Assembly: GCA_044225175.1 (NCBI GenBank)
Contig: JBGAJA010000003.1
Coordinates: 69,428-133,427 of the forward strand
Length of the DNA stretch: 64,000 bases
Direction: 5' to 3'
Source of the DNA: Candidatus Omnitrophota bacterium
GTDB taxonomy: Bacteria > Omnitrophota > Gorgyraeia > Zapsychrales > Fredricksoniimonadaceae
How positions within the stretch are numbered: the first letter of the stretch is position 1; each line of letters opens with the position of its first letter. Under the pieces are notes generated by a model. That model saw only the letters and a program-made list of their open reading frames with translations, was not told the origin of the DNA and searched no databases. This document shows, piece by piece, positions 8,686 to 24,871 of this stretch. The position numbers were made by a program, and so were the translations under genes.

Positions 8686-8724
8686 CTCCTGTTTTCGGAA
8701 TATTAGAGACAGGAGTTTTCTATT
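8686..8724 (+). terminator. Rho-independent terminator (CTCCTGT ... ACAGGAG followed by TTTTCTATTGTTTT)
   Basis: 7-bp stem plus T-run directly after the small ORF. Confidence 0.55.
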
Positions 8725-8864
8725 GTTTTAGATCGTCATGAAACTAGACTTTGTCACCAAAATCTGATATAAGATTACTCTTCCAACCTCAAGGAAATTA
8801 GATACAAGAGATGTAAGGGGTTGTTAAGGGGAACAAAAAACGCAGTTTTCTGAGAGCGAGTTTT

Positions 8865-8938
8865 GTCCCAGTAGCTCAGTTGGATAGAGCATCTGCCTTC
8901 TAAGCAGAGGGTCGCACGTTCGATTCGTGCCTGGGACG
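8865..8938 (+). tRNA. tRNA-Arg (anticodon TCT)
   Basis: GTCCCAGTAGCTCAGTTGGATAGAGCATCTGCCTTCTAAGCAGAGGGTCGCACGTTCGATTCGTGCCTGGGACG folds as a 74-nt cloverleaf with anticodon loop CTTCTAA. Confidence 0.9.
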
Positions 8939-8989
8939 TTTATATTTGTTGAGAATCGAAGCTGTTTTTGATATTCTAGTGCCTCTTGT

Positions 8990-9066
8990 GGTGGCTGTAG
9001 CTCAGTTGGTAGAGTACTTGATTGTGGTTCAAGTTGTCGCGGGTTCAAATCCCGTCAGCCACCCCA
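8990..9066 (+). tRNA. tRNA-His (anticodon GTG) with encoded G(-1) and 3' CCA
   Basis: G-1 plus GTGGCTGTAGCTCAGTTGGTAGAGTACTTGATTGTGGTTCAAGTTGTCGCGGGTTCAAATCCCGTCAGCCACC, then CCA. Anticodon loop TTGTGGT. The extra 5' G pairing with discriminator C is the tRNA-His hallmark. Confidence 0.9.
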
Positions 9067-10629
9067 TATTTCGTTTTTGAGGTATAAATCCTCCCAACCA
9101 GTTGTATTTGCAATAGTTTGCAGAGGTTCGAACCGGTTGTGGAGGATTTTTATTTCAGGAGCGAGTCCCAAAAGGAAAGAAAATTTTTGCTCGACGGTAA
9201 TATCAAGTTTTCGATCTTGTAAGAGAAGGTTCGAACTTAACTCCGCAGTAATACTTTGTTTGACCTGCCAGTCGCCTTCCTGAAACCGTTTTTTGGCCGA
9301 TTCTGCAAAGTTAAAGGCCTTTTCCGCCGCATCAATCCAATTAGGGCTAGAAGAAGCGTTTAAAGAAGACTCTAGGCTTTCTTTTTCTTTTAAGAGGGCG
9401 CTCCGTTTAGCCGCGTATTCTTCTGCAGTGATTTCTTCATTTACTCGGAGGCTGAGAAGGGTATCGAGTTTTCTTATCGCTGTTACCACCTTTTCTTGGA
9501 TGGCATTTTTGCTGTTAAGGGATGCGGTATCATCGTGTTCATTTTCTGCCCTTAGCTGTTTAATAGCCCATTGATGGAAAGGGAGAGGAATGGAAATTTG
9601 ATCCAAGACCCCCAAGATTTGTTGATCTATTTCATCATTGCGGACGGCGGGTTGAGAGCAATCACGATTGATGCGTTTGGTGCAATGGTAATAAGTATAG
9701 TTATGAATATTCCCGTTCTTTTGATGTTTTGTTCGATGCTCAGAAGTGATCGATGCGCCACATTCTCCACAGCGAACTAACCCTCTAAAAGCAAAACCGC
9801 CGCGTTTCTTCAGCTGTTTAACCCGACCGTCCAGAATATCTTGGGCAAGATCAAACTCCGCTTTTGAAATCATGGGTTCATGGACACCTTTATATCTTTT
9901 GCCTTGCCAATCGAATTCGCCATAATAAAAAGGATTTCTTAATATCCTATAAAAACTGCTACGACCAAATTCTTTTCCAGCTCTTCCTCTAAGGCCCATT
10001 TTGGTCGCTCTCAAATAGATTTGTTCAGCCGAACATTTTTCTTCTAACAGGATGTTCCAGACTTGTTTCATGATTGGAAAGAGGTGGGGATCCGAATAGA
10101 TGGGAAGGTGTTCCGGTAAATTATGGCGATTGTTTAAATAACCGATTGGAGGCTTATGGGGGAGCCAACCTTTCTCAGCCTTAGCCCGTTGACCACGTTT
10201 GGTATTTAGGCTTAGATCCAAGATAAACTGATTGGCCATCCCGAATTCGACACTCATCATTAAGACGTTATCGGAAGGAAGGTAGCCTTTTTGGAAGGTC
10301 TGGATGTGCTGTAGGACGCCTTGTTGAAGCATCCAGGTGATATTGCCGCCATCAACCGGATTACGTGCTAGGCGGTCTAGTTTCCAACACAGAATGCCAT
10401 TTGCTTTGCCCTCATGGATCTGCTGGAGCATTTGATTAAAAACTGTTCGACCTGGTGCTTTGGCAGACTTTTCTTCAGTGCAAGTGCCGATGATATTTAA
10501 ATTAAGGTCTTTAGCCAGTCTTTTGAGCTCTTCGATTTGGGAGGGAATAGATGCGACTTGCTTATCTTCATTTTCTGATGATTTGCGTGCGTACAGTAGG
10601 TATTTATTAGCTATAGATAAAGATGTCAT
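9055..10629 (-). mobile_element. Large serine recombinase (resolvase/invertase N-domain, recombinase domain and Zn-ribbon); island integrase
   Basis: The N-terminus LLYARKSSENEDKQVASIPSQIEELK carries the catalytic Ser context of serine recombinases. At 524 aa it has the large C-terminal extension. The gene's 3' end overlaps the last 9-12 nt of tRNA-His. Confidence 0.8.
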
Positions 10630-10799
10630 TTTTCAATACGTTTAAGTAATTTTAGTAGATCCGATTTCTTATATAAACGGTAATTGTTCATAGGATGCCG
10701 GTGGGGTGTTAATTTGCCTTGCTTGTCCCAATTTCGTAGTGTTTGACTGGTTATTTTAAGTAGTTTTGCAGCATCTTTGATGCGAAATAGTTCAGACAT
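10626..10799 (-). CDS. 57-aa MerR/excisionase-family HTH protein, candidate recombination directionality factor
   Basis: MSELFRIKDAAKLLKITSQTLRNWDKQGKLTPHRHPMNNYRLYKKSDLLKLLKRIEK. Its stop overlaps the recombinase start as ATGA. It is below the ORF-track size cutoff. Confidence 0.6.
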   Translation of the reverse strand: MSELFRIKDAAKLLKITSQTLRNWDKQGKLTPHRHPMNNYRLYKKSDLLKLLKRIEK

Positions 10800-10863
10800 T
10801 GGGATCTCCTAACCTTATAAAACATTATAAATTATAACTCGAGTTATCATTGTATTCAACGAC

Positions 10864-11361
10864 TTATTTTTGTGATTCTTTTAAATATGCTTTGGCTTCT
10901 TTAGGTGAATATCCATATTGGAAAAGACGTTCAAATTGGTGGCTGTTTCTGCAACTTTGGTAAGTTAAATCATGACAGTGTCTGCAACCAAAGTATTTAT
11001 CTACTAAATAAAGTATTCCCACGCGTTTTAGGCAAGGAACACTGTTCTTTACAAGGGGACAAATAAACCACCATTTTTTATCTCCTATAAAGTGGCTGGG
11101 GGTAGAGGTGAGTTTGACCTTGTAATCCATAGTATTTCGTCCATCCATTTCTTGATTTGTAAAAGTGTACATAAGGCGCATATATTTATCATTAGGATTA
11201 ATTGATATGATGAATTGAATGCTTCCTAATTCTTGACCAGAAGGGTCTTGCCAAGACATCACCCCTTTCTTTATGCCAGTAAAAAAGCCTTTTTTATTTA
11301 GTCTTACAGTACTTATGGAATTGCACTCTTCCACAGTTAATTTCTTAGCATGACGCCCCAT
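10864..11361 (-). CDS. Cys/His-rich hypothetical protein (possible Zn-binding)
   Basis: 165-aa ORF with CxxxxxxxxC and CRHCH clusters. No known family recognised. Confidence 0.4.
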   Translation of the reverse strand: MGRHAKKLTVEECNSISTVRLNKKGFFTGIKKGVMSWQDPSGQELGSIQFIISINPNDKYMRLMYTFTNQEMDGRNTMDYKVKLTSTPSHFIGDKKWWFICPLVKNSVPCLKRVGILYLVDKYFGCRHCHDLTYQSCRNSHQFERLFQYGYSPKEAKAYLKESQK

Positions 11362-11414
11362 TTGCGATCTCCTTTTTTCTAAATCATCGATGATTTATTT
11401 AATCTTATTTACTT

Positions 11415-12077
11415 TTATGTAACGCTATCTACTGTGCCGTTAAATGTTCTTTTGATTTCATGGATTTTCTTAAGACTTTCATCATCAATATCTTTAAGCT
11501 TTACCATTTCTTCATGCGTGTATATGATCCCATCTTCAAAATGGATACAACCGTCTTTAGACACAAAATGTAATTCCAGCTTCTCTGAGAAAAATCTTCT
11601 GGGGAGCTTTGGGACGTTTGGGACGGCATTAACAAGACTACTTTTCAAAGAGAAGTCAGCAGGTTTGGTTATAGATTCTTTTCGTGTGTGAGTCTCATTA
11701 ACATGTCCCAAGTGTCCCAACACATTCTTCTCAATGACCAATGGTTTATGTTTTTCTGCGGGTTTAATCTTCATTAAAGATCCAGTTCTTGGGTGAAGGG
11801 ATACTTTGTCATTTTTGGTAAAACTATTTTCTTTAATGCCAACAAGTGCGAATATTCGTTGATAATGATTTCCACCCTTGCCGCCGGCATTAACCACACA
11901 TCCAAATGCCCCAGTAGAAGCAACAAAAAGGTGGTTGCCTTTTTGATCATGCCCAGTCTCCGCGCAAGCCGGACACTGGGCAATGATATTATTTCCTTGA
12001 TGTTTGACTTTTGAAAGTTTACTGATGTCCAACATCTTTGAGCCTAACTTTTCTATAACCTTTATGGTCTTTTCCAT
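11415..12077 (-). CDS. Zn-ribbon protein (primase-type CPxC ... FGC zinc-binding domain) encoded downstream of the primase-helicase
   Basis: Motif AQCPACAETGHDQKGNHLFVASTGAFGCVVNAGG resembles the primase zinc-binding domain. The track ORF (to 12206) overlaps the upstream gene by 188 nt, so an internal Met start (12077 or 12035) is more likely. Confidence 0.45.
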   Translation of the reverse strand: MEKTIKVIEKLGSKMLDISKLSKVKHQGNNIIAQCPACAETGHDQKGNHLFVASTGAFGCVVNAGGKGGNHYQRIFALVGIKENSFTKNDKVSLHPRTGSLMKIKPAEKHKPLVIEKNVLGHLGHVNETHTRKESITKPADFSLKSSLVNAVPNVPKLPRRFFSEKLELHFVSKDGCIHFEDGIIYTHEEMVKLKDIDDESLKKIHEIKRTFNGTVDSVT

Positions 12078-14109: not shown

Positions 14110-14290
14110 GACGGGTTTCCTTTTTGTGTACTATTTTGTAGAATCTGATTAAATGCATAGCCAGCTCAGCAGCTTCGTCTGTTGATAAATCAATTCCGAA
14201 GGTTGATTTATAAATATTACGGAATTCGTTGGTAGCTTCTTTAGTTAACATTGTCAGACAATAAAAAACCCTATAAGTTAAGATGCTCAT
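14087..14290 (-). CDS. Small hypothetical protein upstream of the primase gene
   Basis: 67-aa ORF overlapping the primase start by 23 nt. No homolog recognised. Confidence 0.3.
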   Translation of the reverse strand: MSILTYRVFYCLTMLTKEATNEFRNIYKSTFGIDLSTDEAAELAMHLIRFYKIVHKKETRHEHSKKV

Positions 14291-14406
14291 AGGGTAATAC
14301 GAAAATATCCGTTTGTGATCGCACTAGAAAATGATTTCTTTAATGCGGGGTTAGAGCTTAGGGATTGTTAGGTGGGCTTGGATGTAATTGATTGATAAAT
14401 ATGAAG

Positions 14407-15159
14407 TTATAGTTTTAATAGATCAGATAGATAAACAGGATGATCGTCATCTAGGAGTCCCATTTCTGCATAAAATTCTATTTGCTTTTTTGGTCGATCT
14501 CTATACTCGGCGAGAATTCTTTGAATTTGAGACTCGCTAAGATCATATTTATTGAATTCATTTTCAGGAATATTCTTTTCAAGATAATTCGCTAGACGTA
14601 TTTTTATTTCTTTGAGAGGAAAACGACCTTTTTTCCAGCCTAAATCTTTAAGACATTTTATAAGGTAATTATTTCGCATTTGAGTGGCATGGTTAGCCCG
14701 AGGATTCTTTCTACCATCATTAAGAAATTCAAGTTTTCGCAGAATGGTTTTTGTGTCGGTCAAATATTTGGGCCCATCGATCGGTATTCTTTTGTTCTTA
14801 AAAATGGAAATAGGTAGTTCAATGGAGTCTTTAGGAAAGCTATCTTGATAAATATAGGTGGGAATTGAATCTTGAATTATTTTGTGAAAAAAATCTCCGT
14901 ATTGTTTTTGAACAATTTTCGGCAGCATATGGTTTAGGTATTTACCCTTCCAGTAAACCATGAAATTATTATGCTCTGTTTTTTGTCCTTCTGGTTTAAG
15001 GGAATTAGAAGGAAGTTCAGAATAAAAGGCGGCAGAAAAATCTTTGAAGATTAAAACAGGTGGTTGATGCTTAATGGGAATAATAACCACACCATTAAGG
15101 TTTTTAAAGTGCCAGTAATCGATGGAGAAGCGTTCAGATTCGGTATCCATATAAAACAT
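14407..15159 (-). CDS. Hypothetical protein (island cargo)
   Basis: 250-aa ORF with typical coding composition. No family recognised. Confidence 0.45.
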   Translation of the reverse strand: MFYMDTESERFSIDYWHFKNLNGVVIIPIKHQPPVLIFKDFSAAFYSELPSNSLKPEGQKTEHNNFMVYWKGKYLNHMLPKIVQKQYGDFFHKIIQDSIPTYIYQDSFPKDSIELPISIFKNKRIPIDGPKYLTDTKTILRKLEFLNDGRKNPRANHATQMRNNYLIKCLKDLGWKKGRFPLKEIKIRLANYLEKNIPENEFNKYDLSESQIQRILAEYRDRPKKQIEFYAEMGLLDDDHPVYLSDLLKL

Positions 15160-15311
15160 TATAAATGCAGTAATAATTTTGACCAGTTTTGATTTAGTGT
15201 TTAATTTACAAAAACATCCGAAGGTGATAATCTAATTACAATTACCATGGAGGCGGTATCGATTAATAGCCTTTAAATACATATTTAGGAACACGCTTTC
15301 CTAATTTCCAC

Positions 15312-15396
15312 CAACTTGCAGGAGGAAAGGACTGTGTCCCGACGCACTTTATTGTGCGTTCGGGGCAGGCGGTCTTTCGCTTTTACCTGCAAGTTG
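15312..15396. other. GC-rich nested stem-loop element: 11-bp outer helix enclosing a 10-bp inner hairpin. Candidate structured RNA or origin/regulatory site of the island.
   Basis: Perfect 11-bp outer inverted repeat CAACTTGCAGG at 15312-15322 / CCTGCAAGTTG at 15386-15396. Inner hairpin CCCGACGCAC (15338-15347) / GTGCGTTCGGG (15354-15364) with one bulge. It lies in a 257-nt divergent intergenic region. Confidence 0.35.
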
Positions 15397-15467
15397 GGCG
15401 ATCGACTTAAAAATGCTTGCCCCTTTTTTATTTGTTCAAGGGGAAGCAAAATAAAAAAGGGGGCAAG

Positions 15468-16019
15468 GTGAGAAATATTTTATTAGTTTTAATGAGTTTT
15501 TTGTTAGCTGGCTGTGCTGCTCTAGGCATCGAAAATTTACCTGGAACTATAAGTGAGCGTGTTTCTGGTTTTGATAACACTAAAGAAATAACTATGGAAC
15601 CAGCATGGATTACCGGTGGCCCCATTAAGCTGAATTTATATAAAACTTCTAAAATGGCAGAGAATGAAGCGATTTTAGTGGTCACCGTAAAAGGCGCCTA
15701 TAATTTTTCTAATAAAAGTTCCTTACAGATTAATATTGATGGGAATATAGTCACACTTGAGTCTATAGATGTGCTTACTGATGTTTCAACAGATCCGGGG
15801 GTGTACAATTCAGTTGTCTCTATTTCAGCAGAAAATTGGTCATCTAAACGGTATGAGGTTACAAAAGATCTTGTGAAGAAATTAATTGATGCTAAGGAGG
15901 CCTGGGTAAAAGTTAATTTATTTAAAGATTATGTTGAGGGGAACTTCTCAACAGATAAGCCTATGATGGCGCGACCAGCATTTAGGGAGTTTTATAAAAA
16001 AGCTTGGGAAGCTAAATAA
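15468..16019 (+). CDS. Lipoprotein (lipobox LLAGC)
   Basis: GTG start 15468 preceded by GGGGG; signal peptide (M)RNILLVLMSFLLAGC. The track ORF starts further upstream at TTG 15417. Confidence 0.55.
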   Translation: MRNILLVLMSFLLAGCAALGIENLPGTISERVSGFDNTKEITMEPAWITGGPIKLNLYKTSKMAENEAILVVTVKGAYNFSNKSSLQINIDGNIVTLESIDVLTDVSTDPGVYNSVVSISAENWSSKRYEVTKDLVKKLIDAKEAWVKVNLFKDYVEGNFSTDKPMMARPAFREFYKKAWEAK

Positions 16020-16110
16020 GAAGGGGGCAGATGAAGTAGATTATTTGTGCAGTAGGCATATTTTCTAGTATTTCTTTAAATGTTTTTGCTGCAGGAATAT
16101 AGGGAGGATT

Positions 16111-16380
16111 ATGAAAAATAAGATAAATAACTTGGATGTCGGTAAGAATAAGATGAAAGTGAGCCTGGAGTTAATGTTTGTGGTGGGAGCAATAGTATTC
16201 GTAGTTTTTTTTACATGGGTAACATTATTTTCAGGATTTCATGTAGCTCCATCTCAGGTGGGAACTGTGTTTATGACAATGGGTGTTTCGGTAATTGTAT
16301 TAATATTCTTTATAAATAGATTGATGCAACCAAAGATTCTTGAAGGGGGAATAAGGAGCTTGTTCTTAAGGAAGTCGTAG
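16111..16380 (+). CDS. Small two-TM membrane protein
   Basis: SD AGGGAGGATT immediately upstream of the ATG; two hydrophobic helices. Confidence 0.5.
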   Translation: MKNKINNLDVGKNKMKVSLELMFVVGAIVFVVFFTWVTLFSGFHVAPSQVGTVFMTMGVSVIVLIFFINRLMQPKILEGGIRSLFLRKS

Positions 16381-16400
16381 GAGTTGTTGGGCGTTTAGAA

Positions 16401-16814
16401 TTGCTGCCTGATAAGATTAGGATTTCAAGAAAAGGGGCTGGAGCGCTATTTACTCATGGATTTAAGGGTGATAAAGAAATCTTTATAAAGTATATTTCTT
16501 CAATTCAGTTTAAAAAGGCGGGTTTAATAATCAATGGATACATTCAGTTTGCCTTTTTAGGGGGACAGGAGTCAAAATCAGGTTTATATAGTGCCGTTCA
16601 AGATGAAAATACTATAGTGTTTAATTCTTATCAGCAGAAGGATTTTGAAGAAATAAAGGCTATGATTGAGTCTAAGATGGCGACCACAGAGAATAATAAT
16701 TCCTCAATAGATAAAAATTTGGAAGATTTAGAAAGATTGGCTAATTTGAAACAAAAGGGGATTCTTACTGAAGAAGAGTTTCAATTAAAGAAAGAACAAA
16801 TTTTGCGATTGTAA
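16401..16814 (+). CDS. SHOCT-domain protein with bacterial PH-like N-terminal domain
   Basis: C-terminal LERLANLKQKGILTEEEFQLKKEQIL matches the SHOCT motif. TTG start. Confidence 0.55.
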   Translation: MLPDKIRISRKGAGALFTHGFKGDKEIFIKYISSIQFKKAGLIINGYIQFAFLGGQESKSGLYSAVQDENTIVFNSYQQKDFEEIKAMIESKMATTENNNSSIDKNLEDLERLANLKQKGILTEEEFQLKKEQILRL

Positions 16815-16864
16815 AATAGTGGGATATTTTTGATTTATAAATTAAAAATGAAAGGTGAATAGAT

Positions 16865-17290
16865 ATGAAAAGAATTCTAGTTTTACTCTTGTGTTTTGGA
16901 TTGGTAGGGTGTGCGACGGTTCCATCTTTAGGAGAAAAATCAACATTATTAAAAGTTGGAATGTCTAAAAGTGAGGTTACTCAACTTTTGGGAGTTCCTA
17001 AGACTACTTCAGTGAATAAGACAGATGATGGTATTGTTGAGAAATGGTCATATTGGGTGAAAAAAATGGTTGGGTATGTAATGTTTGATGATCCCAATTT
17101 AGCTGGATTAGGCAATCGGTTAACGGTAACATTTAAGAATGACGTTGTTCAATCATGGGGTGATCAACTAGATTACAGTAATATGATTGATCAAAGTACA
17201 CAGGTCATGAAAGAAGCAATGAAGAATATGCAGCCAATTCAAGTTGAGCAAACAGTCTATCAAAGCAATAAAGCGGATTCTAAGAAGTAG
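16865..17290 (+). CDS. Lipoprotein (lipobox LVGC)
   Basis: MKRILVLLLCFGLVGCAT signal peptide/lipobox; SD AAAGGTGAA upstream. Confidence 0.6.
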   Translation: MKRILVLLLCFGLVGCATVPSLGEKSTLLKVGMSKSEVTQLLGVPKTTSVNKTDDGIVEKWSYWVKKMVGYVMFDDPNLAGLGNRLTVTFKNDVVQSWGDQLDYSNMIDQSTQVMKEAMKNMQPIQVEQTVYQSNKADSKK

Positions 17291-17449
17291 GCGTAGCACG
17301 CTGTCTTTTGACTTTTGTATTAGGATAAATAAGACCCTCTGGGATTTAATAAATTGCAGGGGGTTTTTATTTGGAGTAGACTTATAAGAATATGAATCGG
17401 GGGATATTGCTATTCGAATTTAAAGAACAGATGATAAAATTAAAGATCA

Positions 17450-18394
17450 TTGATGAATAAGAATTCTATTAAAAAACAATTAGCACAAGACCTGCCGGAT
17501 CGAATTAGATTTCTTTCTAGGAAGATTGCAAGAAAACCATCCTCATTTAGGTCAAGATGGGCCGTCTCTATAGATCAATCTTTTGATCTTTATACTAATA
17601 CAAGTACGGTCAATCTTATACAAAGCATCAATAATATGTTGGCTGAGGAAAATTGGCCTTTACCAGCATATCTTAATGCAAAGGGCGAAATATATAGACT
17701 TTCTCCTCTTCCAGGATTGATCAATTCTTTAAAGAGCTTCATTGGACTTAGCAGGCTTGTTTTAATTCTGATGTCTCTAAATGTTGGTCTAAATAAGAAG
17801 AAGACTTTTGATGCTCACATGTCTAACTTTTCTAGATTTTATGCAAAAGACATTTTCAGTGATTTAAAACTCAATCCTTTATTAAAAGAGAAAAGACTAA
17901 TTATTAATGAGATTGAGAAAGCGTATAGATTAAGAATGTGGGCAACATGTATTACTACTATGGTGCCTATATTTGATTTTGTTATGAGATCTTACTTTGG
18001 TTCTCAAGACCTGAAGATTTCTATTCAGACATTACGGGACGCTTTTGGAAAATCTGGTCTCAAGCCAAAAGATTTGAAGCCAGGTCATGCTATTTGGGAG
18101 GCGCGTGAAAATCCTCATAAAGGTAATACCTTTACCAAATCGATAGAAGAGGATCTTCGGCTTCCAGGCGTTTATTTATCTTCATTCTTTGAGTTCGCAG
18201 ATAGATACTACGGATGGTATGAATCTACGGATAACCCCGATGCTCTTCTCAATAGACATGCTATTATACATTGTTCTACAGGATGTTGGAACGAGCCTAA
18301 TGCGATCAGGCTGCTGACATTCTTAGATTTAACCCTTAAACTTGAGAATGTATTAAAAACTTTAATACATGGGGACACTTTTGTTGATACTTAA
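17450..18394 (+). CDS. Hypothetical protein, possible partner of the downstream DUF4238 protein
   Basis: 314-aa ORF. No recognised family. Confidence 0.45.
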   Translation: MMNKNSIKKQLAQDLPDRIRFLSRKIARKPSSFRSRWAVSIDQSFDLYTNTSTVNLIQSINNMLAEENWPLPAYLNAKGEIYRLSPLPGLINSLKSFIGLSRLVLILMSLNVGLNKKKTFDAHMSNFSRFYAKDIFSDLKLNPLLKEKRLIINEIEKAYRLRMWATCITTMVPIFDFVMRSYFGSQDLKISIQTLRDAFGKSGLKPKDLKPGHAIWEARENPHKGNTFTKSIEEDLRLPGVYLSSFFEFADRYYGWYESTDNPDALLNRHAIIHCSTGCWNEPNAIRLLTFLDLTLKLENVLKTLIHGDTFVDT

Positions 18395-18593
18395 ATAAGA
18401 TTAAACATTTAGTGAGATCCCGGTCTTGGAAATTTTTGTTTTTCAGAAGGGAAGATGCCCGACGGACTTTGTTACTAGGGTTTGTAATGAAACAACGTCG
18501 GTGTATGACTGTTTCAGTCATGGTGTAGCGTTCTAGACGGCTAACTTACCTCTCCCACAGACCTGATATTCACAAACAAGCAACGCGGAAAAT

Positions 18594-21098
18594 ATGGATA
18601 CAACCCGCAAAAATCATTATGTCCCTAAATGGTATCAGAAGCGATTCTTATCTTCGGAGAAGAGTGCTTTTCATTACCTGAATCTCAACCCATCTTTAAT
18701 TAAGATTTCTAATGGCACAAAGCTAAGCAAGGCTATTGACTGGCCGTGTAGTCCTAGACAATGTTTTTGGGAACAGGATCTTTATAACACGTCGTATTTC
18801 GGCTTTATTGATGATGAAATCGAAAGGCGTCTGTTTGGGGAAATTGATCGTACTGGGGCCAAAGCGATTGATGCCATGGCCGCTCAGGATATGAGGCGGA
18901 TGCACGCAACGTTCGAGGACTTCTTTGAGTATATTGATGGACAGAGAATCCGCACTCCCAAAGGGCTGGCATGGCTTAAATCTAAATATCCTAATCTGAC
19001 ACATAATCAATTGCTGATGGAAATGCAGCGTATACGGCAAATGCACTGCACCCTTTGGGTGGAGGCAGTTCGGGAAATAGTGTACGCGGACACTTCTGCT
19101 GTGAAGTTCCTTGTCTCGGACAATCCCGTTACTTTTTATAACCACGCTTGTAATCCTGATTCAGAAGAATGTCGTTACCCGGATGACCCAAGAATTGAGA
19201 TGAAAGCGACGCAGACCATTTTTCCTTTAGACAGCAATCGTTGCCTTATTTTGACCAATTTGGACTATGCTCGTAATCCAAATCTAGCGGATCCCAAGGC
19301 TTGGAGACCCAATGCTAATCCTTTTCGTCCGACTATGGGAAGAATTGATACAACGATTTGTGAGCGACACTTGCAAGATCACGAAGTGGTGGCTATCAAC
19401 TACATAATCAAAAGTAGGGCAAAGCAATACATAGCTGCGGAAAAAAGGGAATGGCTTGAGCCCGAGAAGATTTTTAAAGGCGATTGGAAAGTAGCGGGTA
19501 AGGTGTTATTGCCTCCAAAAGATGAGTTGCACCATTTCGGTGGAGAAATGTATGGTCAGTATGAAGATGGCCGATATTTCTATCGTGATGCGTATGGCAG
19601 AACTCATGGGGAAGCAGAACACTTAAAGAAAGATCCTCCAAAAGGCAAGATTGGTGCCAACCATCCTTGTACGTGCGGCAGTGGTAAGAAGTACAAGAAA
19701 TGTTGTCGTGATAAGGCTGAGGAAGATAGACCTTCTAGCTCCCAACGCAGTATTCGGGAGAGAAATTTGATGTTTTTCAGCATTGTCTCCAAGATTCTAG
19801 GACTTGAAGAAAATAATTGGACCGAAGTAAGAAGGCAACTTACTGACAAGAAGGTCGTTGATGTTCATAAGGCTGTTGCGGCATTGTGGCCTCCGGATAC
19901 GGACTTAATGGCTTTGCTACCGCGACCGGATGCCAAAGTTTCACGGGCTCTTTATTCAGGATTATTAGATCCCAGGGTCACATACAAAGATATTGCGGCA
20001 CTTTTGCCTTATGTGGACGAGATTTTGTTGATAAATCCATTTTTAAACCCAAATGTACTTCAGAAGAAATTTAATCCCATTGATAATCCTGCTCAATTTA
20101 GGTATGAAACGCTAAAGAATGTGCTTTTCTTAATGCCTTTGATGCCTTTGATCTCAGCCGGAAGGGTTAATGTGATTCCTGATCCCTTACATTTTAATCC
20201 TGCTTTAAGACAACAAATTTGGGCAGAAGCTGAAAAGCGTCGGGGAAAAGTTCAGATAGACGAAAAGATGATGAAATCAAATACAGAATTTGCAAAGGAT
20301 GACTTCAGGCGATTCATTTTTAGCGGTCCGGAAGATCGAATAAGGAGATTTGTTAAGAAAACAAATCCCGACATGACGGATGTAGAAATGGAGAAGTTTC
20401 TTGCTTATACACGGAAGCAGAACGAAGAAGATCCTCTCGTTTTGCTTGATCCAGCCACCGCTCAAGATGGTCAAGGCCAAGTCATGGTATTTCATCTAAA
20501 CCCTAATTTTGAATTAGGGATGTTTTTAGCTCAAGCGACAGGATCATTTATTGTCACATCCCATCCGTATAGATGGTCTGAGATTTGCTCATCAATAGAC
20601 TATTTCTATAGTGGTGCTCAATCAGCATGGGATCCTATCGCCAAATACATAATGGATTTTGAAATGGATTTTGCGCATTTCTCAGATCAAAGAGACTTTG
20701 TGTCTATGCTTAATGGCGGCGGGTTTCCAGACATGAAAAGCGCTTTAAGAAATGTCTGGAATATGGTGCAGACTGAAAGGCCCGTAGATGCTTCACAAAT
20801 AGACGGGCTTTTGAAAGATATTGACCATGGGCGAGAAAAAACGAAAGTGTCGATCGACAAACTAATGCAGCAGAAAAATGACGATCAGGCAGAATATTTG
20901 AGAGTAATAAAAACCAAAGCAAAGCTAAGTGCTAAGATTGCACCTGCTGGACATAGTACTAGTTTGGTGTATCGGCAGCTTTTGGCTCATGCGGGGCATG
21001 ATAAGTATCTAAAGGCTTTACCGTTGGCATTGTACATTGAACATGAAGAAATCAATGAAGATGGACTGGCTAAACAGCCAGAACAAGCGCCTTCTTAA
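18594..21098 (+). CDS. Large DUF4238-like N-terminal domain protein with an internal SEC-C metal-binding motif; candidate anti-phage/abortive-infection protein
   Basis: The N-terminus NHYVPKWYQKRF matches the HYVP..Y...F signature I associate with DUF4238. HPCTCGSGKKYKKCC at about aa 355 is a SEC-C motif. About 470 aa of unassigned C-terminal sequence follow. Confidence 0.55.
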   Translation: MDTTRKNHYVPKWYQKRFLSSEKSAFHYLNLNPSLIKISNGTKLSKAIDWPCSPRQCFWEQDLYNTSYFGFIDDEIERRLFGEIDRTGAKAIDAMAAQDMRRMHATFEDFFEYIDGQRIRTPKGLAWLKSKYPNLTHNQLLMEMQRIRQMHCTLWVEAVREIVYADTSAVKFLVSDNPVTFYNHACNPDSEECRYPDDPRIEMKATQTIFPLDSNRCLILTNLDYARNPNLADPKAWRPNANPFRPTMGRIDTTICERHLQDHEVVAINYIIKSRAKQYIAAEKREWLEPEKIFKGDWKVAGKVLLPPKDELHHFGGEMYGQYEDGRYFYRDAYGRTHGEAEHLKKDPPKGKIGANHPCTCGSGKKYKKCCRDKAEEDRPSSSQRSIRERNLMFFSIVSKILGLEENNWTEVRRQLTDKKVVDVHKAVAALWPPDTDLMALLPRPDAKVSRALYSGLLDPRVTYKDIAALLPYVDEILLINPFLNPNVLQKKFNPIDNPAQFRYETLKNVLFLMPLMPLISAGRVNVIPDPLHFNPALRQQIWAEAEKRRGKVQIDEKMMKSNTEFAKDDFRRFIFSGPEDRIRRFVKKTNPDMTDVEMEKFLAYTRKQNEEDPLVLLDPATAQDGQGQVMVFHLNPNFELGMFLAQATGSFIVTSHPYRWSEICSSIDYFYSGAQSAWDPIAKYIMDFEMDFAHFSDQRDFVSMLNGGGFPDMKSALRNVWNMVQTERPVDASQIDGLLKDIDHGREKTKVSIDKLMQQKNDDQAEYLRVIKTKAKLSAKIAPAGHSTSLVYRQLLAHAGHDKYLKALPLALYIEHEEINEDGLAKQPEQAPS

Positions 21099-21232
21099 TT
21101 GTCATATGGAGATTAGATTCTTTCCTTGGGGCAGGGGGCATGTTTCTTCTTTGCTATTTTTGGGGTTGAGAGTAAAATTACTTTATGATTAACATACTCA
21201 TGCAATTGAGCGTCTTTTAGTTATGGGAACTA

Positions 21233-21865
21233 ATGAACATTGAGATTTTAAGTAAGATTAGCGGGTATTTACAAATTGGTATCTTTGTGTGCGGGATCCT
21301 CACCACTGGGTTAGCATTTGTTAAATATAAAATTGATAAACAAATTGGATCTTCCAAAGATCTCCAGATTAAACAGCTTGATAGTTATTCTGAATTTTAT
21401 CGTTTAAGTGTATCTGTCCGAGCCGATAGTAGAGCGGCTCTCGACAAGCTCAAAGAGATATCTCAAAATAAATATGATGTTAGACAATCTTTGGTTGCCG
21501 ACACGCTAAAAGATTTTCCTAAAGAAGCAGAGCACATAAATCTCTTAGAATACCCCATTGATTGGCAACAGATTGGTATTGATCCCACAAAAGCTACGCT
21601 AGAAGTCTTTCAAGAACTATATAATCATGCTGCGCCAGTGTACCAAAGTAAAATAATGCAGACTGTTTGGGGCGCTACACAGATTCAAAAGAAAGAAAAG
21701 ATTCAGTTCTTGATTGATATTATACGTACCACTCCATCCGTTAGGTGTTTAAGGGAGGCATGTATTCTTTTGAATCCAGAAGCAAAGCTGGGCAGGAATT
21801 TTATGCTATGGGAAGAATATATTAAATGGTGGGATAATAACAAGGATAAGTATCAGAAGTCATAA
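21233..21865 (+). CDS. Membrane-anchored hypothetical protein
   Basis: N-terminal TM ISGYLQIGIFVCGILTTGLAFV; 210 aa. Confidence 0.45.
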   Translation: MNIEILSKISGYLQIGIFVCGILTTGLAFVKYKIDKQIGSSKDLQIKQLDSYSEFYRLSVSVRADSRAALDKLKEISQNKYDVRQSLVADTLKDFPKEAEHINLLEYPIDWQQIGIDPTKATLEVFQELYNHAAPVYQSKIMQTVWGATQIQKKEKIQFLIDIIRTTPSVRCLREACILLNPEAKLGRNFMLWEEYIKWWDNNKDKYQKS

Positions 21866-21884
21866 AACGTATACGGAGATCATT

Positions 21885-22196
21885 ATGAAGAATATAATGC
21901 TTTGCCTTTTGGTGTCATTATTTTTAGTTGGCTGCGGCGAGAATGACGGAAGATTTGAAGTGAAGAATGTTAAATTACCTGTGCGGACCACAATCGCAGC
22001 AAATACGGTAAATGCGGGGGGTTCAAGAATTGAATACCAGGAAGAACTTATAAAGGTTGATACCAAAACCGGTAAGGTATGGAAGCTACAGCATGGTTCT
22101 AGCCAGATTGGAGGAAGTATTTCTGAGTTCAGCTTATGGGATGAACTGGGCAATACTTATCGTGAGAACGGCAAAGATGTAAGGAAGCCTCAGTAA
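21885..22196 (+). CDS. Small lipoprotein (lipobox LVGCG)
   Basis: MKNIMLCLLVSLFLVGCGEN; SD ACGGAGAT upstream. Confidence 0.55.
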   Translation: MKNIMLCLLVSLFLVGCGENDGRFEVKNVKLPVRTTIAANTVNAGGSRIEYQEELIKVDTKTGKVWKLQHGSSQIGGSISEFSLWDELGNTYRENGKDVRKPQ

Positions 22197-22271
22197 GAGC
22201 TCTTATTAATTAGTCGATGAGTAATCGGTAGCTTTAAATGTAGCTTAAAAGTTCTTTCTTTTAACCAGACT

Positions 22272-22284
22272 GGGACCCCATTTC
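22272..22284 (+). repeat. Degenerate copy (GGGACCCCATTTC) of the tRNA-His 3'-end / att core, at the 5' truncation point of the ATPase remnant
   Basis: It shares ACCCCAT(A)TTTC with the tRNA-His end (gccACCCCATaTTTCg at 9058-9073). Confidence 0.3.
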
Positions 22285-22329
22285 TATCGCCCTGTCCCTA
22301 TTTAGGGGACTGGCCCTTTCTACTTTCTA

Positions 22330-22679
22330 CGTTATCTGGTAAGGCGTATATTTCTTTATTTAAAGAAGCTAAAGCCAAAGGTTACAGAATTACAGTTTTT
22401 TATTTAAGTATTCCAAGTAATAAGCTTGCTCAAGAGAGAGTGAAGCAGCGCGTTAAAGAGGGTGGGCATAATGTGCCAATAGTTGATATTAATAGGCGAT
22501 TTATTAGAAGTTGGCAGAATTTCATTAACCTTTATATGCCACTAACAGATTCTTGGTTGTTACTTGATAATTCAATGCTTAAACCAATTGAAGTAGCAAA
22601 ATGTGATCATGGTAAGATCAAAGTTTTGAATAAATCTTTATATAAAGAATTAATGGAGGGTAGAGATGACAAGTCTTAA
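22330..22679 (+). pseudogene. 5'-truncated paralog of the zeta-toxin-like ATPase gene (C-terminal ~110 codons only)
   Basis: Translation KEAKAKGYRITVFYLSIPSNKLAQERVKQRVKEGGHNVPIVDINRRF... aligns with the C-terminal half of the 23518..24090 protein (KEVKSKGYSVHIFFLWIPSEDLAKQRIKQRVKQGGHHVPDADVKRRL). The Walker-A N-terminal half is missing. Confidence 0.65.
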
Positions 22680-22833
22680 ATCTAGTACATTAATTTTAAA
22701 TAAAGCAGGAAAAGCAATGCGAAGTGCTGTACGTAAGGTTTTAGCAGAAAAGAAATTGAGAGGTGAGCCTGCTATTATTTGGAAGGATGGCAAGGTTGTA
22801 AAAGTCCCTGCAAGTCAATTAAGCAAAGCTTAA
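22666..22833 (+). CDS. 55-aa small protein, paralog A of the partner gene downstream of the zeta-like ATPase
   Basis: MTSLKSSTLILNKAGKAMRSAVRKVLAEKKLRGEPAIIWKDGKVVKVPASQLSKA, with SD GGAGGG 6 nt upstream. It is paralogous to 24087..24257 (shared core RGEPxIIWKxGKVVKxPA). Confidence 0.5.
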   Translation: MTSLKSSTLILNKAGKAMRSAVRKVLAEKKLRGEPAIIWKDGKVVKVPASQLSKA

Positions 22834-22834
22834 G

Positions 22835-22866
22835 CAGGTACGGATAACGTCCCGCCAGCGACCCCA
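22835..22866 (+). repeat. att-like degenerate copy of the tRNA-His 3' half (core CCCGCCAGCGACCCCA)
   Basis: 14/16 identity to the tRNA-His 3' end CCCGTCAGCCACCCCA (9051-9066). Preceded by GGTACGGATAAC, which resembles the T-arm. Confidence 0.5.
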
Positions 22867-22973
22867 GCTCTTGTAACACCTTGAATTTTATGAAGTTAAA
22901 AAGTTCGAGGCTGTCCCATGACCCTTCGCAATTAATTTTGCGAAGGGTTTAATTTTTGTGATATGCTTTCTCT

Positions 22974-23435
22974 ATGCCCTCCCAAGAAAACAAGATTCTT
23001 CAAGAAGCATTTAGCCCAATCTTTAAAAGATACGGGTATAAGAAGCATGGTGCAACATGGCATCATGATAATAAGGAATTGATCTCGTGTTTCAACATAC
23101 AAGGATCGCAATGGTCAAAAGCATTCTATTTAAACTTGGGGATTTATATTAAAGCTTTGGGTGATAAATCTTTTCCTAATGAATATGAATGTCATGTGCG
23201 ATTGCGAATAGAAGGGCTTGTGGATGAGAGATCAAAAGTGCATCAATTGCTAGATTTTGAGAATTCTCTGCCTCAAGAGTCTCGGCTTAAAGAATTAACC
23301 AAGATCGTTGAAGATAAAGTTATTCCGTGGTTTCAGAAAATTAGCACCTCGGAAGATTTGCGGAAGATGATTTTAGAAATGAAGCTACAAGTAGTAACAA
23401 AGATCGCTAAAGAACATCTTGGCATTATTGATTAA
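22974..23435 (+). CDS. DUF4304-like hypothetical protein
   Basis: KKHGATWHHDNKELISCFNIQGSQWSKAFYLNLGIYIKAL matches the pattern (KkGnnWyr...NlQkSqws..fyiNlGi) I recall for DUF4304. Confidence 0.45.
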   Translation: MPSQENKILQEAFSPIFKRYGYKKHGATWHHDNKELISCFNIQGSQWSKAFYLNLGIYIKALGDKSFPNEYECHVRLRIEGLVDERSKVHQLLDFENSLPQESRLKELTKIVEDKVIPWFQKISTSEDLRKMILEMKLQVVTKIAKEHLGIID

Positions 23436-23459
23436 AGATAAAATAGTTACAAAACTCGT

Positions 23460-23475
23460 CCCGTAAGTGACCCCA
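23460..23475 (+). repeat. Third degenerate att-like core (CCCGTAAGTGACCCCA)
   Basis: 13/16 match to the tRNA-His 3' end. Extended similarity (16/21) to copy A including the preceding CGTCCCG. Confidence 0.3.
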
Positions 23476-23517
23476 GTTTTTTCCTCTCAAGCTTAGGTTT
23501 TATGGTAGACTTTAATC

Positions 23518-24090
23518 ATGCCTAAGCTTTATATAATTGCTGGTCCTAATGGCGCCGGAAAAACTACATTTGCTAAAGAATTTCTTCCTTCCTATGCGAA
23601 ATGTTCCAATTTTGTCAATGCAGATTTGATTGCGTTAGGTCTTTCTCCTTTCAGTCCAGCTCAAGTCAGTATTAAGGCTGGTAAATTGTTACTCGGTGAA
23701 ATCGATAATTTCATAATCCGTAAGATGGATTTCGCCTTTGAAACAACTCTCGCTGGAAGAACATATATAAATTTAATCAAAGAAGTTAAATCTAAAGGAT
23801 ATTCTGTACACATTTTCTTTTTGTGGATACCCAGCGAGGATTTAGCTAAACAAAGAATAAAGCAACGGGTCAAACAAGGTGGGCATCATGTGCCTGATGC
23901 AGATGTCAAAAGAAGGTTACGCCGTAGTCTGAAGAATTTTTTTAATCACTATAGTCCCTTGGTTGATGGATGGGACATTTTTGATAATTCCGGATCAGAG
24001 CCAAAATTGGTGGTTAAATCTAATGAAAAAGGGTTTCAGATTATTGATAAAGAACTTTATCGATATTTGCTCAACAAGGAGAACATATGA
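23518..24090 (+). CDS. Zeta-toxin-like / AAA_33-type P-loop kinase-fold ATPase
   Basis: Walker A IIAGPNGAGKTTFA. The overall fold matches zeta-toxin/UDP-GlcNAc-kinase-like proteins. 190 aa. Confidence 0.6.
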   Translation: MPKLYIIAGPNGAGKTTFAKEFLPSYAKCSNFVNADLIALGLSPFSPAQVSIKAGKLLLGEIDNFIIRKMDFAFETTLAGRTYINLIKEVKSKGYSVHIFFLWIPSEDLAKQRIKQRVKQGGHHVPDADVKRRLRRSLKNFFNHYSPLVDGWDIFDNSGSEPKLVVKSNEKGFQIIDKELYRYLLNKENI

Positions 24091-24257
24091 TTAAGAAAGT
24101 CGAAGGTGATGTTCTTTCTAAGAAAGCAGAAAAAGCCATGAAGAAGGCTGTGCAAGGTGTGATTGCAGACCGCAAAATGCGAGGCGAGCCTTTGATCATT
24201 TGGAAGAACGGTAAAGTTGTAAAGATTCCTGCTAAGGACTTAAAGCGGTTCGGATAA
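24087..24257 (+). CDS. 56-aa small protein, paralog B, translationally coupled (ATGA) to the ATPase
   Basis: MIKKVEGDVLSKKAEKAMKKAVQGVIADRKMRGEPLIIWKNGKVVKIPAKDLKRFG. Its start overlaps the ATPase stop. Its 3' end overlaps the att-like repeat. Confidence 0.5.
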   Translation: MIKKVEGDVLSKKAEKAMKKAVQGVIADRKMRGEPLIIWKNGKVVKIPAKDLKRFG

Positions 24258-24276
24258 CCTCCCGCCAGCGACCCCA
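24245..24276 (+). repeat. att-like degenerate copy of the tRNA-His 3' half (GCGGTTCGGATAACCTCCCGCCAGCGACCCCA)
   Basis: The core CCCGCCAGCGACCCCA is identical to copy A. The upstream GGTTCGGATAACC mimics the tRNA T-arm GGGTTCAAATCCC. Confidence 0.5.
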
Positions 24277-24284
24277 TTTTTAGA

Positions 24285-24318
24285 CCCTTATAACTAAAAA
24301 GTTATAAGGGTTTTTTAT
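24285..24318 (+). terminator. Rho-independent terminator (11-bp perfect stem CCCTTATAACT/AGTTATAAGGG plus TTTTTT)
   Basis: Seen directly in the sequence. Confidence 0.7.
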
Positions 24319-24370
24319 TTAGAGCTATAATGGGGGCACTTTTGAATTAAATCATATATGGAGGTAAGCT

Positions 24371-24802
24371 ATGGCATCAATAAATCCACACATTAATTTC
24401 AACGGAAATGCCGAAGAAGCATTTACATTTTACAAATCGATGTTCGGCGGAGAATTTGCAAAGGTGATGCGTTTTAAAGACCTCGCAAGCCCGGGATTTG
24501 AAATCGCAGAAAAAGATAAGAATAAGATTATGCACATTGCTTTGCCTATCGGTAAAAGCAGTATGTTAATGGCAAACGACGTGCCAGAATTTATGGGAAA
24601 GACTAATGAGCGTGAGAATAGAAGCAAGATTGTCATAAGTGCAGATAGCAAAGAAGAGGCAGATAAATTATTTCATGGTCTTTCAGCTGGTGGAGAAGTA
24701 GAGATGCCAATTGGGAAAAGCCCCTGGGGTTCATACTTTGGTATGTTTAGAGATAAATACGGTATTGAATGGATAGTAGATTTTGACCCTAAGAGGTTTT
24801 AA
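24371..24802 (+). CDS. VOC-superfamily protein (PhnB/YjdN-like glyoxalase-fold)
   Basis: The pattern INFNGNAEEAFTFYKSMFGG ... EEADKLFHGLSAGGEVEMP ... YGIEWIV is typical of PhnB-like proteins. SD GGAGGTAAGC upstream. Confidence 0.6.
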   Translation: MASINPHINFNGNAEEAFTFYKSMFGGEFAKVMRFKDLASPGFEIAEKDKNKIMHIALPIGKSSMLMANDVPEFMGKTNERENRSKIVISADSKEEADKLFHGLSAGGEVEMPIGKSPWGSYFGMFRDKYGIEWIVDFDPKRF

Positions 24803-24840
24803 CAGCTATAGGCCATGGCCCGTTTTCAATAACATAAACC

Positions 24841-24871
24841 CCTGTGACGTAAGAAGTTACAGGTTTTTTTT
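24841..24871 (+). terminator. Rho-independent terminator (CCTGTGAC ... GTTACAGG plus T8)
   Basis: 8-bp stem with one G-U wobble followed by eight T's. Confidence 0.65.

Follow-up and report, generated by a model that had tools for sequence, protein, structure and literature searches.

A large serine recombinase element at the 3′ end of a tRNA-His gene in Candidatus Omnitrophota

The recombinase gene at the tRNA end

The stretch of Candidatus Omnitrophota DNA analysed here (the window; 64,000 nucleotides of contig JBGAJA010000003.1) carries two tandem tRNA genes, for tRNA-Arg and tRNA-His, and a gene for a large serine recombinase (LSR) that runs into the second of them from the opposite strand. 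A small helix-turn-helix (HTH) gene, a replication module, a run of cargo genes and a series of short repeats follow. Our findings support a mobile island of 13-15 kb at the very end of the tRNA-His gene, placed there by the LSR. The features at the tRNA end are:

8864..8939, plus strand: tRNA-Arg(TCT), called by ARAGORN and Rfam (RF00005, 69.7 bits); first of the pair, host context outside the element
8991..9066, plus strand: tRNA-His(GTG), called by ARAGORN and Rfam; intact gene, read as the host-side (B) arm of the attachment site attL
9055..10629, minus strand: LSR of 524 residues (Pfam Resolvase, Recombinase, Zn_ribbon_recom), convergent to tRNA-His
9061..9067, plus strand: core ACCCCA(T), common to attL and four distal arms
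~9067-9100: element-side P′ arm of attL, in the LSR 3′ end
10626..10799, minus strand: 57-residue MerR/HTH_17 protein (Pfam MerR, HTH_17; PHROG match)

The LSR gene overlaps the tRNA gene by 12 nt. On the opposite strand, 9055-9057 is complementary to its TGA stop, and tRNA-His 9058-9066 (...GCCACCCCA) to its last three codons, W-G-G; the stop codon and the final G-G codons come from the tRNA. The same 12-nt overlap is common to nine loci of the subclade associated with CCA-encoding tRNA-His genes. At the other end of the LSR gene, the TGA of the 57-residue gene overlaps the LSR ATG (AATGA), giving ATGA coupling. A first-pass annotation of this DNA had described the tandem tRNA-Arg/tRNA-His pair, a minus-strand 524-residue LSR reaching over 9055-9066 and an ATGA-coupled MerR/excisionase-like HTH gene of 57 residues, all of which the ARAGORN, Rfam and Pfam calls and the two overlaps bear out.

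Pfam matches in the LSR are PF00239 (E=3.3e-17), PF07508 and PF13408, and the protein matches the phrog_95 integrase family (E=3.5e-68). In an alignment of 22 homologues R15, S17 and D85-R86-L87-x-R89 are invariant, which fits the active-site pattern R8/S10/D81-R82-L83-x-R85 of Bxb1 (PMC12884075); the catalytic Ser/Arg residues on which the first-pass annotation had made its recombinase call depend (R15, S17, R86, R89) are thus conserved. The four zinc-ribbon cysteines (C287, C290, C316, C324) are invariant in the same homologues, residues 334-422 align with the coiled-coil region of the SPbeta integrase, and the solved SPbeta and A118 integrase structures are matched distantly over the full length (E ~1e-9). 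As far as its sequence shows, the window enzyme has the domains and active-site residues by which large serine integrases are defined. Pfam and PHROG scans of the open reading frames (ORFs) of the island found no tyrosine recombinase, relaxase, capsid or terminase gene. We considered an island driven by a tyrosine integrase, with the LSR as cargo, and rejected it since the island has no tyrosine recombinase gene.

tRNA association and attachment-site spacing in the recombinase clade

Homologues of the LSR number in the thousands, the best 120 being 50-79% identical. We fetched 164 loci from genome and metagenome collections (denoted by L numbers), 136 of them with at least 150 nt beyond the LSR, and counted a locus as tRNA-associated when a convergent tRNA lay within -120 to +400 nt of the projected LSR end. 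Such a tRNA is present in 84 of the 136 loci, and in most of these 84 its 3′ end falls 6 or 8 nt inside the projected LSR end. The target tRNAs include His, Asn, Gln, Trp, Ala, Val, Arg, Tyr, Ser, Glu and others, and the hosts are labelled Omnitrophota, Patescibacteria/Saccharibacteria, Elusimicrobia, Planctomycetales, Rickettsiales and DPANN archaea. Nothing above 27-28% identity to the LSR came from collections of phages and plasmids: the best match in 50,697 phage records was 27% identical, and IMG/VR returned no relative to a single-protein query and one 40%-identical LSR to an alignment query. A search of a literature library for a tRNA-targeting LSR clade found no description of one, and this large clade of LSRs in uncultivated microbes, which seems to specialise in tRNA ends, is apparently undescribed. 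The first-pass annotation had called a serine recombinase at a tRNA gene the less common arrangement, in agreement with an island-mapping study according to which serine integrases are not known to target tRNA genes (PMC7192596); a survey of LSR targets never mentions tRNA (PMC10083194).

The spacing of the T-loop motif distinguishes two kinds of locus. We recorded the position of GGTTC (at most one mismatch) relative to the projected LSR end as its offset. Of 50 dereplicated tRNA-adjacent loci, 46 have GGTTC at offset 16, and in the window the T-loop GGTTC of tRNA-His (9042-9046) is likewise 16 nt from the reference point. Loci without a tRNA have a sequence resembling a T-arm and acceptor strand beyond the LSR end, with GGTTC at offset 21 in 23 of 44, at 16 in ten and at 29 in three; Rfam detected no tRNA in 15 such loci (108 kb). 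The 5-bp shift matches the published rule for serine integrases, in which the motif of the zinc-ribbon domain spans positions 16-24 of attP and 11-19 of attB (Rutherford et al., PMC3783163), and we therefore read loci without a tRNA as attP and tRNA loci as attL. On this reading attP would consist of P arm, core and P′, and attL of B arm, core and P′; in the His subclade the core common to both states is ACCCCA. Because the LSR gene contains P′ in its 3′ end, integration would swap the C-terminal tail of the enzyme. The zinc-ribbon domain presumably reads the T-loop motif at both spacings.

Members of the clade are found in the un-integrated state and in more than one target. The L114 contig (10614 nt) has a 127-nt terminal direct repeat, which indicates a circular molecule of 10.49 kb in the attP state, with a P arm ending GCGACCCCA. 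Pfam gave no match for the nine other ORFs of this contig that were scanned. L132, also in the attP state, has the same P′ arm as L130 and L138, which are in the attL state at tRNA-Asn, and the LSR 3′ ends are 89% identical. One element occupies two different tRNAs: L164 and L165 have 5.7 kb in common at 97.4% identity, and the homology stops 4 nt inside tRNA-Ser(cga) and tRNA-Trp(cca), respectively, where the junctions read ..CCTCCGCA and ..CCCCCGCA, each followed by GAGTAGG. The LSR 3′ ends of L161, L163, L164 and L165 are 99.8-99.9% identical over 900 nt; the first three lie in tRNA-Ser(cga) in three metagenomes and L165 in tRNA-Trp(cca) in a fourth. L007 and L008 are one element in two different tRNA-His genes. 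In both L007/L008 and L164/L165 element identity ends within the last few nucleotides of the tRNA, for which reason we rejected an LSR element that carries a replacement tRNA 3′ half.

The LSRs closest to that of the window, in L099 (79%) and L082 (78%), have no tRNA and read ...TAGACCCCA next to the LSR end. In both loci the LSR ORF extends ~126 further residues (to 650 in L082) and, compared with the family consensus, the P arm is longer by an 8-nt insertion, which moves GGTTC to offset 29. The cargo of the L082 element includes a type I restriction-modification system.

Several other arrangements were seen at the LSR end. In L130, L138, L133, L035, L079, L073, L160 and L161 the P′ arm is a strong hairpin with a T-run directly after the tRNA, for example ACTTTGGGC-ATATATTTC-GCCCAAAGT-CCTTTTATTT within the first 50 nt past the tRNA. 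This arm seems to provide a new tRNA terminator from the element while encoding the LSR C-terminus on the opposite strand. The window P′ arm has a weak 4-bp stem only. L011, L021/L131, L027 and L137 have no tRNA call and GGTTC at offset 16, in a sequence that resembles a tRNA-Asn 3′ half and is preceded by a conserved non-tRNA ATAGTCCAYCC..TTT..GAAA; these loci may represent a different type of attP, in which the tRNA mimic is longer, or tRNA genes that are split. Attachment sites of the attP type also occur as junctions inside long chromosome-like contigs (the 409-kb L017, L152, L159, L170), which would need tandem arrays, nesting in another element, or misassembly.

Distal arms, cassettes and interior of the island

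A repeat search of the window recovered a family ending in GACCCCA, a heptamer that occurs 7 times in the window, both strands counted. Four of the 7 lie on the plus strand within 2 kb, at 22274-22280, 22860-22866, 23469-23475 and 24270-24276. The features of this region are:

22250..22280, plus strand: arm #1 (AGTTCTTTCTTTTAACCAGACTGGGACCCCA), AGTTC at offset 22; attR candidate closing the 13.2-kb LSR-proximal unit
22281..22866, plus strand: cassette 2, a 5′-truncated zeta-toxin-like gene and a 55-residue partner, ending in arm #2
22837-22866, plus strand: arm #2 (GGTACGGATAACGTCCCGCCAGCGACCCCA), GGTAC at offset 21; repeat family D2
22867..23475, plus strand: cassette 3, with a terminator hairpin (22920-22949) and a DUF4304 gene (22974-23435), ending in arm #3
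23445-23475, plus strand: arm #3, AGTTA at offset 22; the most degenerate arm
23476..24276, plus strand: cassette 4, an intact zeta/AAA_33-like gene and a 56-residue partner, ending in arm #4
23518-24090, plus strand: the zeta-toxin/AAA_33-like gene of cassette 4, 190 residues (PF06414, E=5e-12; AAA_33)
24087-24257, plus strand: its ATGA-coupled 56-residue partner, downstream of the zeta-like gene, no family match
24247-24276, plus strand: arm #4 (GGTTCGGATAACCTCCCGCCAGCGACCCCA), GGTTC at offset 21; best fit to the family consensus
24282..24313, plus strand: rho-independent terminator 6 nt past arm #4, 14-bp stem and T-run

The P arms read GACCCCA and the tRNA CACCCCA, and a strict search for the 7-nt core missed the distal arms for this reason. 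A search for a direct repeat of the tRNA-His 3′ end (25-mer, at most 3 mismatches) matched the tRNA itself and nothing else, so that the distal sites are mimics of the tRNA end rather than copies of it. All four have P-type spacing and are therefore read as attR-type junctions, from which the island would consist of the 13.2-kb unit and three small arm-bounded cassettes. Identity between attL and arm #1 is limited to ACCCCAT, which brackets the crossover between tRNA A71 and the first base past CCA; the crossover dinucleotide should lie inside the core ACCCCA(T). Of the breakpoints named in the first-pass annotation, 22866 and 24276 coincide with real repeats and the one put at 22284 is at 22280; a fourth site, at 23475, had escaped it. 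These repeats are attP-type arms and not simple tRNA duplications.

The zeta-like gene of cassette 2 begins at residue 76 of its paralogue, 46 nt past arm #1. By tblastn it is 48% identical to residues 76-185 of the intact copy in cassette 4, and its partner is 53% identical. A classical epsilon antitoxin gene sits upstream of zeta and the 56-residue partner sits downstream, which makes a zeta/epsilon assignment tentative. The zeta-like gene pair is also cargo in L122, a tRNA-Ala element; there it does not adjoin a P arm, and the idea that the pair always does so was rejected.

The two strongest hairpins of 8700-25000 follow arm #2 and arm #4. The terminator at 24282-24313 is probably the native terminator of the tRNA operon, displaced, and the start of host DNA. 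The hairpins at 22920-22949 and 24282-24313 share the stem GACCCTT...AAGGGTT, as if the array had taken up a copy of tRNA-flanking DNA. In the read set SRR28480388, the Logan unitigs 16862-22866 and 22837-24381 meet exactly on the arm #2 30-mer (k-1 overlap). This 30-mer is a branch node of the assembly graph; no alternative context was recovered from that sample. The node may stem from another junction, for instance that of an excised circle or of a cassette variant.

Arrays of arms are also found in relatives, and un-integrated forms can have them too. In L156 there is a second array, with three near-identical P arms (GTTCTAAACCCATCCACCACGCGACCCAA) upstream of a tRNA-His-targeting LSR. Its cores end at 5068, 4121 and 2262, and the genes of the units that they bound (947 and 1859 nt) are directed away from the arm; each arm is followed by G(A/C)GGTTC(T/G)AA(C/T)C and a GGGGTATAAT-like (-10-like) box. 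This array looks integron-like. The attP-state loci L175, L153, L143 and L152 have additional copies of the P arm a short way past the LSR end. Upstream of the LSR in 52 attL loci, searched with a 6-nt core, eight copies of the core have GGTTC at offset 21 where ~1 would be expected, and several elements of the candidate phyla radiation (CPR) have single attR candidates 7-11 kb from the tRNA.

Inside the 13.2-kb unit, the genes that follow the LSR and the 57-residue gene are:

10864-11361, minus strand: 165-residue protein, conserved core gene, no family match
11415-12206, minus strand: 263-residue ORF with a CxxC motif, conserved core gene, no family match (220 residues in Logan gene calls)
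12019-14109, minus strand: primase-helicase of 696 residues, Toprim and DUF5906/D5_N (phrog_864, phrog_6088, E ~1e-50)
14087-14290, minus strand: 67-residue protein, precedes the primase-helicase
14407..22196, mixed strands: cargo region from Pfam and ORF scans, ~7 kb of it on the plus strand
within the cargo, minus strand: 250-residue protein of no assigned function
15417-16019, 16865-17290 (BamE-like) and 21885-22196, plus strand: lipobox proteins
17450-18394, plus strand: 314-residue protein, precedes the DUF4238 + SEC-C gene
18594-21098, plus strand: 834-residue DUF4238 + SEC-C protein
within the cargo: a membrane protein, a DUF4429/SHOCT protein and a 210-residue protein

The MerR/HTH_17 gene lies directly upstream of the LSR in 13 subclade loci (61-89% identity). 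By analogy with small recombination directionality factors (RDFs) of 7-9 kDa, its product is a candidate RDF or regulator. Homologues of the 165- and 263-residue genes occur in the same order in L082, L099, L083, L101, L104, L105, L109, L168 and L103; the primase-helicase is 57-73% identical in 9 related elements, and the 67-residue protein is matched in 42 loci. The primase-helicase genes presumably form a replication module for the excised form. Of the replication module described in the first-pass annotation, the Toprim primase-helicase is upheld by Pfam and PHROG, while for its "Zn-ribbon protein" we find the CxxC motif and no family match.

Lipobox and hypothetical genes fill 15417-22196, much as the run of lipoprotein, membrane and hypothetical genes had been described before. 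The cargo has the lowest GC content and the highest tetranucleotide deviation within the island. Single cargo genes recur in the elements L001, L002 and L059; a 28%-identical homologue of the DUF4238 + SEC-C protein adjoins the LSR in L059 (8550-10004), which makes this protein a recurrent cargo. Searches with PADLOC, PHROGs and NCBIfam found no known defence or accessory system in the cargo, giving SEC-C-motif noise only. Relaxase, coupling-protein and type IV secretion families are absent from the scanned island ORFs (Pfam, PHROG; no search for an origin of transfer was made), as are capsid, terminase, portal and packaging genes.

Three genes lie directly past the island (25922-28322). The first two (25922-26829) have type IV pilin/pseudopilin-like N-termini (KGFTLVEVMV, GISLTEILV), and the third (26853-28322) encodes a 489-residue protein. 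The tetranucleotide deviation of this stretch (112-126 against 89) equals that of the island cargo.

Proposed integration route, alternatives and related systems

The order PtsP, 500-residue protein, tRNA-Arg, tRNA-His recurs in L083, L001 and L100, and homologues of the 500-residue flank protein are labelled Candidatus Omnitrophota; the Arg-His tRNA pairing is also present in L083, L001 and L181. The annotation had proposed comparing related genomes for an empty site or for the same gene block in place. L083, L001 and L100 have different LSR elements at the same tRNA-His, with LSR identities of 57-66% and almost no common cargo, and L181 is unoccupied: its tRNA-His (12829-12902) differs by one base, a Na/H exchanger gene follows 42 nt on, and there is no island. 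By identity to the window, the LSRs rank L083 > L100 > L001, whereas the host PtsP proteins rank L001 > L100 > L083. The L181 tRNA-His has no encoded CCA (..CAGCCACCC followed by TTCTTTT), whereas all occupied tRNA-His genes of the subclade read ..ACCCCA, so that the encoded CCA may come from the core of the element.

We consider it likely that 9067-22280, possibly to 24276, is an integrative and probably self-replicating element inserted by its own LSR at the 3′ extremity of tRNA-His. That a tRNA-targeting integrative element lies here was also the view of the first-pass annotation, and the LSR abutting tRNA-His, the module and cargo behind it and the att-like distal sites agree with it. In the circular form, attP would lie within the 3′ end of the LSR gene, its P arm imitating a T-arm and acceptor strand (a GGTTC-like motif, ~18 nt, then GACCCCA) with GGTTC 5 bp farther from the crossover. 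The LSR would bind this arm and the tRNA-His gene, which serves as attB with its T-loop GGTTC, and exchange strands within A71-A76 (ACCCCA). The tRNA would be kept intact, the LSR ORF would be re-terminated by a TGA complementary to tRNA positions 65-67, and the P arm would move to the far end as attR. For excision the enzyme would require a directionality factor, for which the ATGA-coupled 57-residue MerR/HTH_17 protein is the candidate, and the circle would be replicated by the primase-helicase module. Rounds of integration, internal deletion, and re-integration or co-mobilisation could have left the three extra P arms that bound the cassettes. Old insertions would decay by deletion, the truncated zeta gene 46 nt past arm #1 being a possible scar of this kind, and new copies would re-insert at the tRNA, or outer arms might serve excision and take cassettes along. 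The circle junctions expected are an arm joined to TATTTCGTTTTTGAGG, for example GACTGGGACCCCATATTTCG or CCAGCGACCCCATATTTCG, and the repaired attB would be GTCAGCCACCCCA joined to TTTCTATCG, GCTCTTGTA, GTTTTTTCC or TTTTTAGACC. The present copy may still be mobile.

Several observations weigh against this account. Exact-protein look-ups for the 500-residue flank protein, the DUF4238, DUF4304 and zeta-like proteins and the 55-residue protein returned the integrated arrangement only, with neither an excised circle nor a reconstituted attB of the window element, and the glyoxalase flank gene had no record. The sole empty site found, L181, is distant (52% identity in the flank protein) and has an inverted local gene order. 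Divergence from the syntenic relatives is similar for the LSR (57-66%) and the host PtsP (59-66%), which makes long residence possible. The compositional contrast between island and host, proposed earlier as a check on the boundaries, is present but weak (GC 0.335-0.34 in the cargo against ~0.39; tetranucleotide distance 102 inside the island against 89 +/- 11.5 outside), and we rejected it as a marker for setting the ends. Arm #1 matches the consensus less well than arms #2 and #4, and standard serine-integrase rules explain tandem integration beside an existing attL poorly. At the level of the family, L082 and L099, the closest relatives, have GGTTC at offset 29 and not 21. A dyad-symmetry scan of 28 attP-type sequences reached at most 8.6 of 27 where ~6.75 is expected, without a clear centre, and the same analysis recognised no zinc-ribbon motif in B′ or P′; the assignment of the motif to that domain is thus one that we infer. 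Finally, the P arm of attP-state loci lies within the extended LSR ORF and is translated as its tail, so that constraint on the protein could contribute to the conservation of the arm.

Some of these points suit a fixed relic, in which an old LSR insertion has been vertically inherited, excision has been lost and the four arms are fossils. The look-ups found no excised form and no empty site of the same species, all three syntenic relatives are occupied with an LSR divergence resembling that of the hosts, cassette 2 is visibly decayed and the composition stands out little. We nevertheless regard a relic as unlikely: no ORF of the LSR, the MerR-like gene or the replication module is broken and the catalytic residues are conserved, the cargo differs almost entirely between syntenic relatives, the identity ranks of LSR and PtsP disagree, and other family members have clearly moved recently; the unitig branch exactly at arm #2 in one sample also hints at heterogeneity. 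A stronger competitor, which we hold to be quite possible if somewhat short of an even chance, takes the whole 15.2 kb (9067-24276) as one composite unit with arm #4 as its functional attR and the inner arms as passengers from earlier hosts. Arm #4 is the best consensus match and is directly followed by a terminator like that of a tRNA operon; the extra P arms of attP-state L175, L153, L143 and L152 are as expected of travelling arrays, L156 has three near-identical arms, and a zeta-like pair is cargo in L122. Against a composite unit, the zeta truncation 46 nt past arm #1 resembles a deletion scar at a former junction more than cargo, and a native-like terminator hairpin also follows arm #2.

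The genes of the unit also recall phage satellites, since a primase-helicase, an integrase and a small HTH gene are the typical core of phage-inducible islands. All three are found together here, and each of the three proteins (LSR, HTH protein and primase) has PHROG matches. A satellite or cryptic prophage remnant dependent on a helper phage is still improbable in our view, given that the island ORFs include no capsid, terminase, portal or packaging gene, that IMG/VR holds one relative at 40% identity and that the best of the 50,697 phage records reaches 27%. As for a coincidental adjacency of LSR and tRNA, with insertion by some other mechanism and the LSR as cargo or as a resolvase/invertase, the same nucleotide-precise overlap in dozens of unrelated genomes effectively refutes it; the island has no other recombinase gene, and the enzyme has the full integrase architecture, unlike a small resolvase, which leaves such a coincidence a vanishingly small chance.

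Beyond the favoured account of a self-inserted element, a broader proposal joins two ideas: that the LSR clade reads tRNA genes modularly, and that arm-bounded units are LSR-less cassettes captured or mobilised in trans. The zinc-ribbon domain would, presumably, read the universal T-loop GGTTCRA while a few acceptor-end bases choose the tRNA, by which near-identical enzymes could hop between tRNA genes and across phyla. Mobilisation in trans would cover the three cassettes of the window, the units of L156 and several attP-state relatives, and would amount to a tRNA-anchored cassette platform, comparable to an integron but served by a serine recombinase. We put this forward tentatively and think it rather doubtful as a whole.

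The window LSR has the same catalytic Ser/Arg domain, recombinase domain and zinc ribbon with coiled coil as the integrases of A118/LI, SPbeta (SprA), phiC31, Bxb1 and TP901-1. As with these phage and integrative and conjugative element (ICE) enzymes, the att sites are short, the core is small, the attP motif lies 5 bp farther out (PMC3783163), and a small separate protein is expected to control direction. The relationship is distant (E ~1e-9 to structures; at most 27-28% identity in phage and plasmid records). The clade differs in targeting a tRNA end rather than a protein-coding gene, in having attP inside the integrase's own 3′ coding end, in an outer motif that is the universal tRNA T-loop, and in elements without phage genes. 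A serine integrase combined with a small Xis-type HTH directionality factor is said, from work by Bibb & Hatfull in 2002 and 2005, to operate in phiRv1 of Mycobacterium tuberculosis, which reportedly targets a repetitive element and not a tRNA. The 57-residue HTH protein next to the LSR fits the phiRv1-type RDF size class (~7-9 kDa).

Islands inserted in tRNA genes by tyrosine integrases resemble the window element in that the integrase abuts the tRNA 3′ end, the tRNA is preserved, the cargo lies beyond, and tandem remnants and hot-spot behaviour mark a single tRNA. In contrast to these, the window has no long repeat of the tRNA 3′ half; a 6-7-nt core and an imperfect, 5-bp-expanded mimic take its place, and with a different enzyme family the chemistry and the logic of the sites differ. 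Similar in organisation, too, are the tycheposons of Prochlorococcus, which are tRNA-anchored and combine integration and primase/helicase replication modules with cargo, and in which each new integration displaces the older material outwards, with partial att sites and degraded remnants left behind; 910 of 937 have tyrosine recombinases and 27 of 937 a large serine recombinase (bioRxiv 10.1101/2020.12.28.424599). The window element is tycheposon-like in organisation only, with its tRNA-specific integrase, replication module, cargo and tandem remnants: tycheposons belong to marine cyanobacteria and have partial-tRNA repeats, whereas this element has an Omnitrophota-like host and the att logic of a serine integrase. 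Gene units bounded by recombination sites are also known from the arrays of ICEs and cis-mobilizable elements (CIMEs) in streptococci and from integron cassette arrays, which depend on tyrosine recombinases. Here, too, small units that are each bounded by a recombination site accumulate at one attachment site, but they end in a P-type arm of a serine integrase.

The island itself is an ordinary type of feature; what is distinctive is the tRNA specialisation, the T-loop-mimicking attP in the integrase gene and the cassette arrays. Where large DNA payloads are to be inserted, serine integrases are the main tools, and most of their targets in nature are considered to be protein-coding genes. A large clade from uncultivated phyla targets tRNA genes with nucleotide precision, and its site logic can be read from sequence: the T-loop motif stands at offset 16 in the site of the host and at 21 in that of the element, and attP lies in the 3′ end of the enzyme's own gene. 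If the enzyme does read the T-loop, its attB would be built from a highly conserved sequence, and specificity and retargeting would be approachable by experiment. The clade would represent a plasmid-like, non-phage, non-conjugative class of mobile elements in Omnitrophota, CPR bacteria and DPANN archaea, groups in which gene flow is poorly understood.

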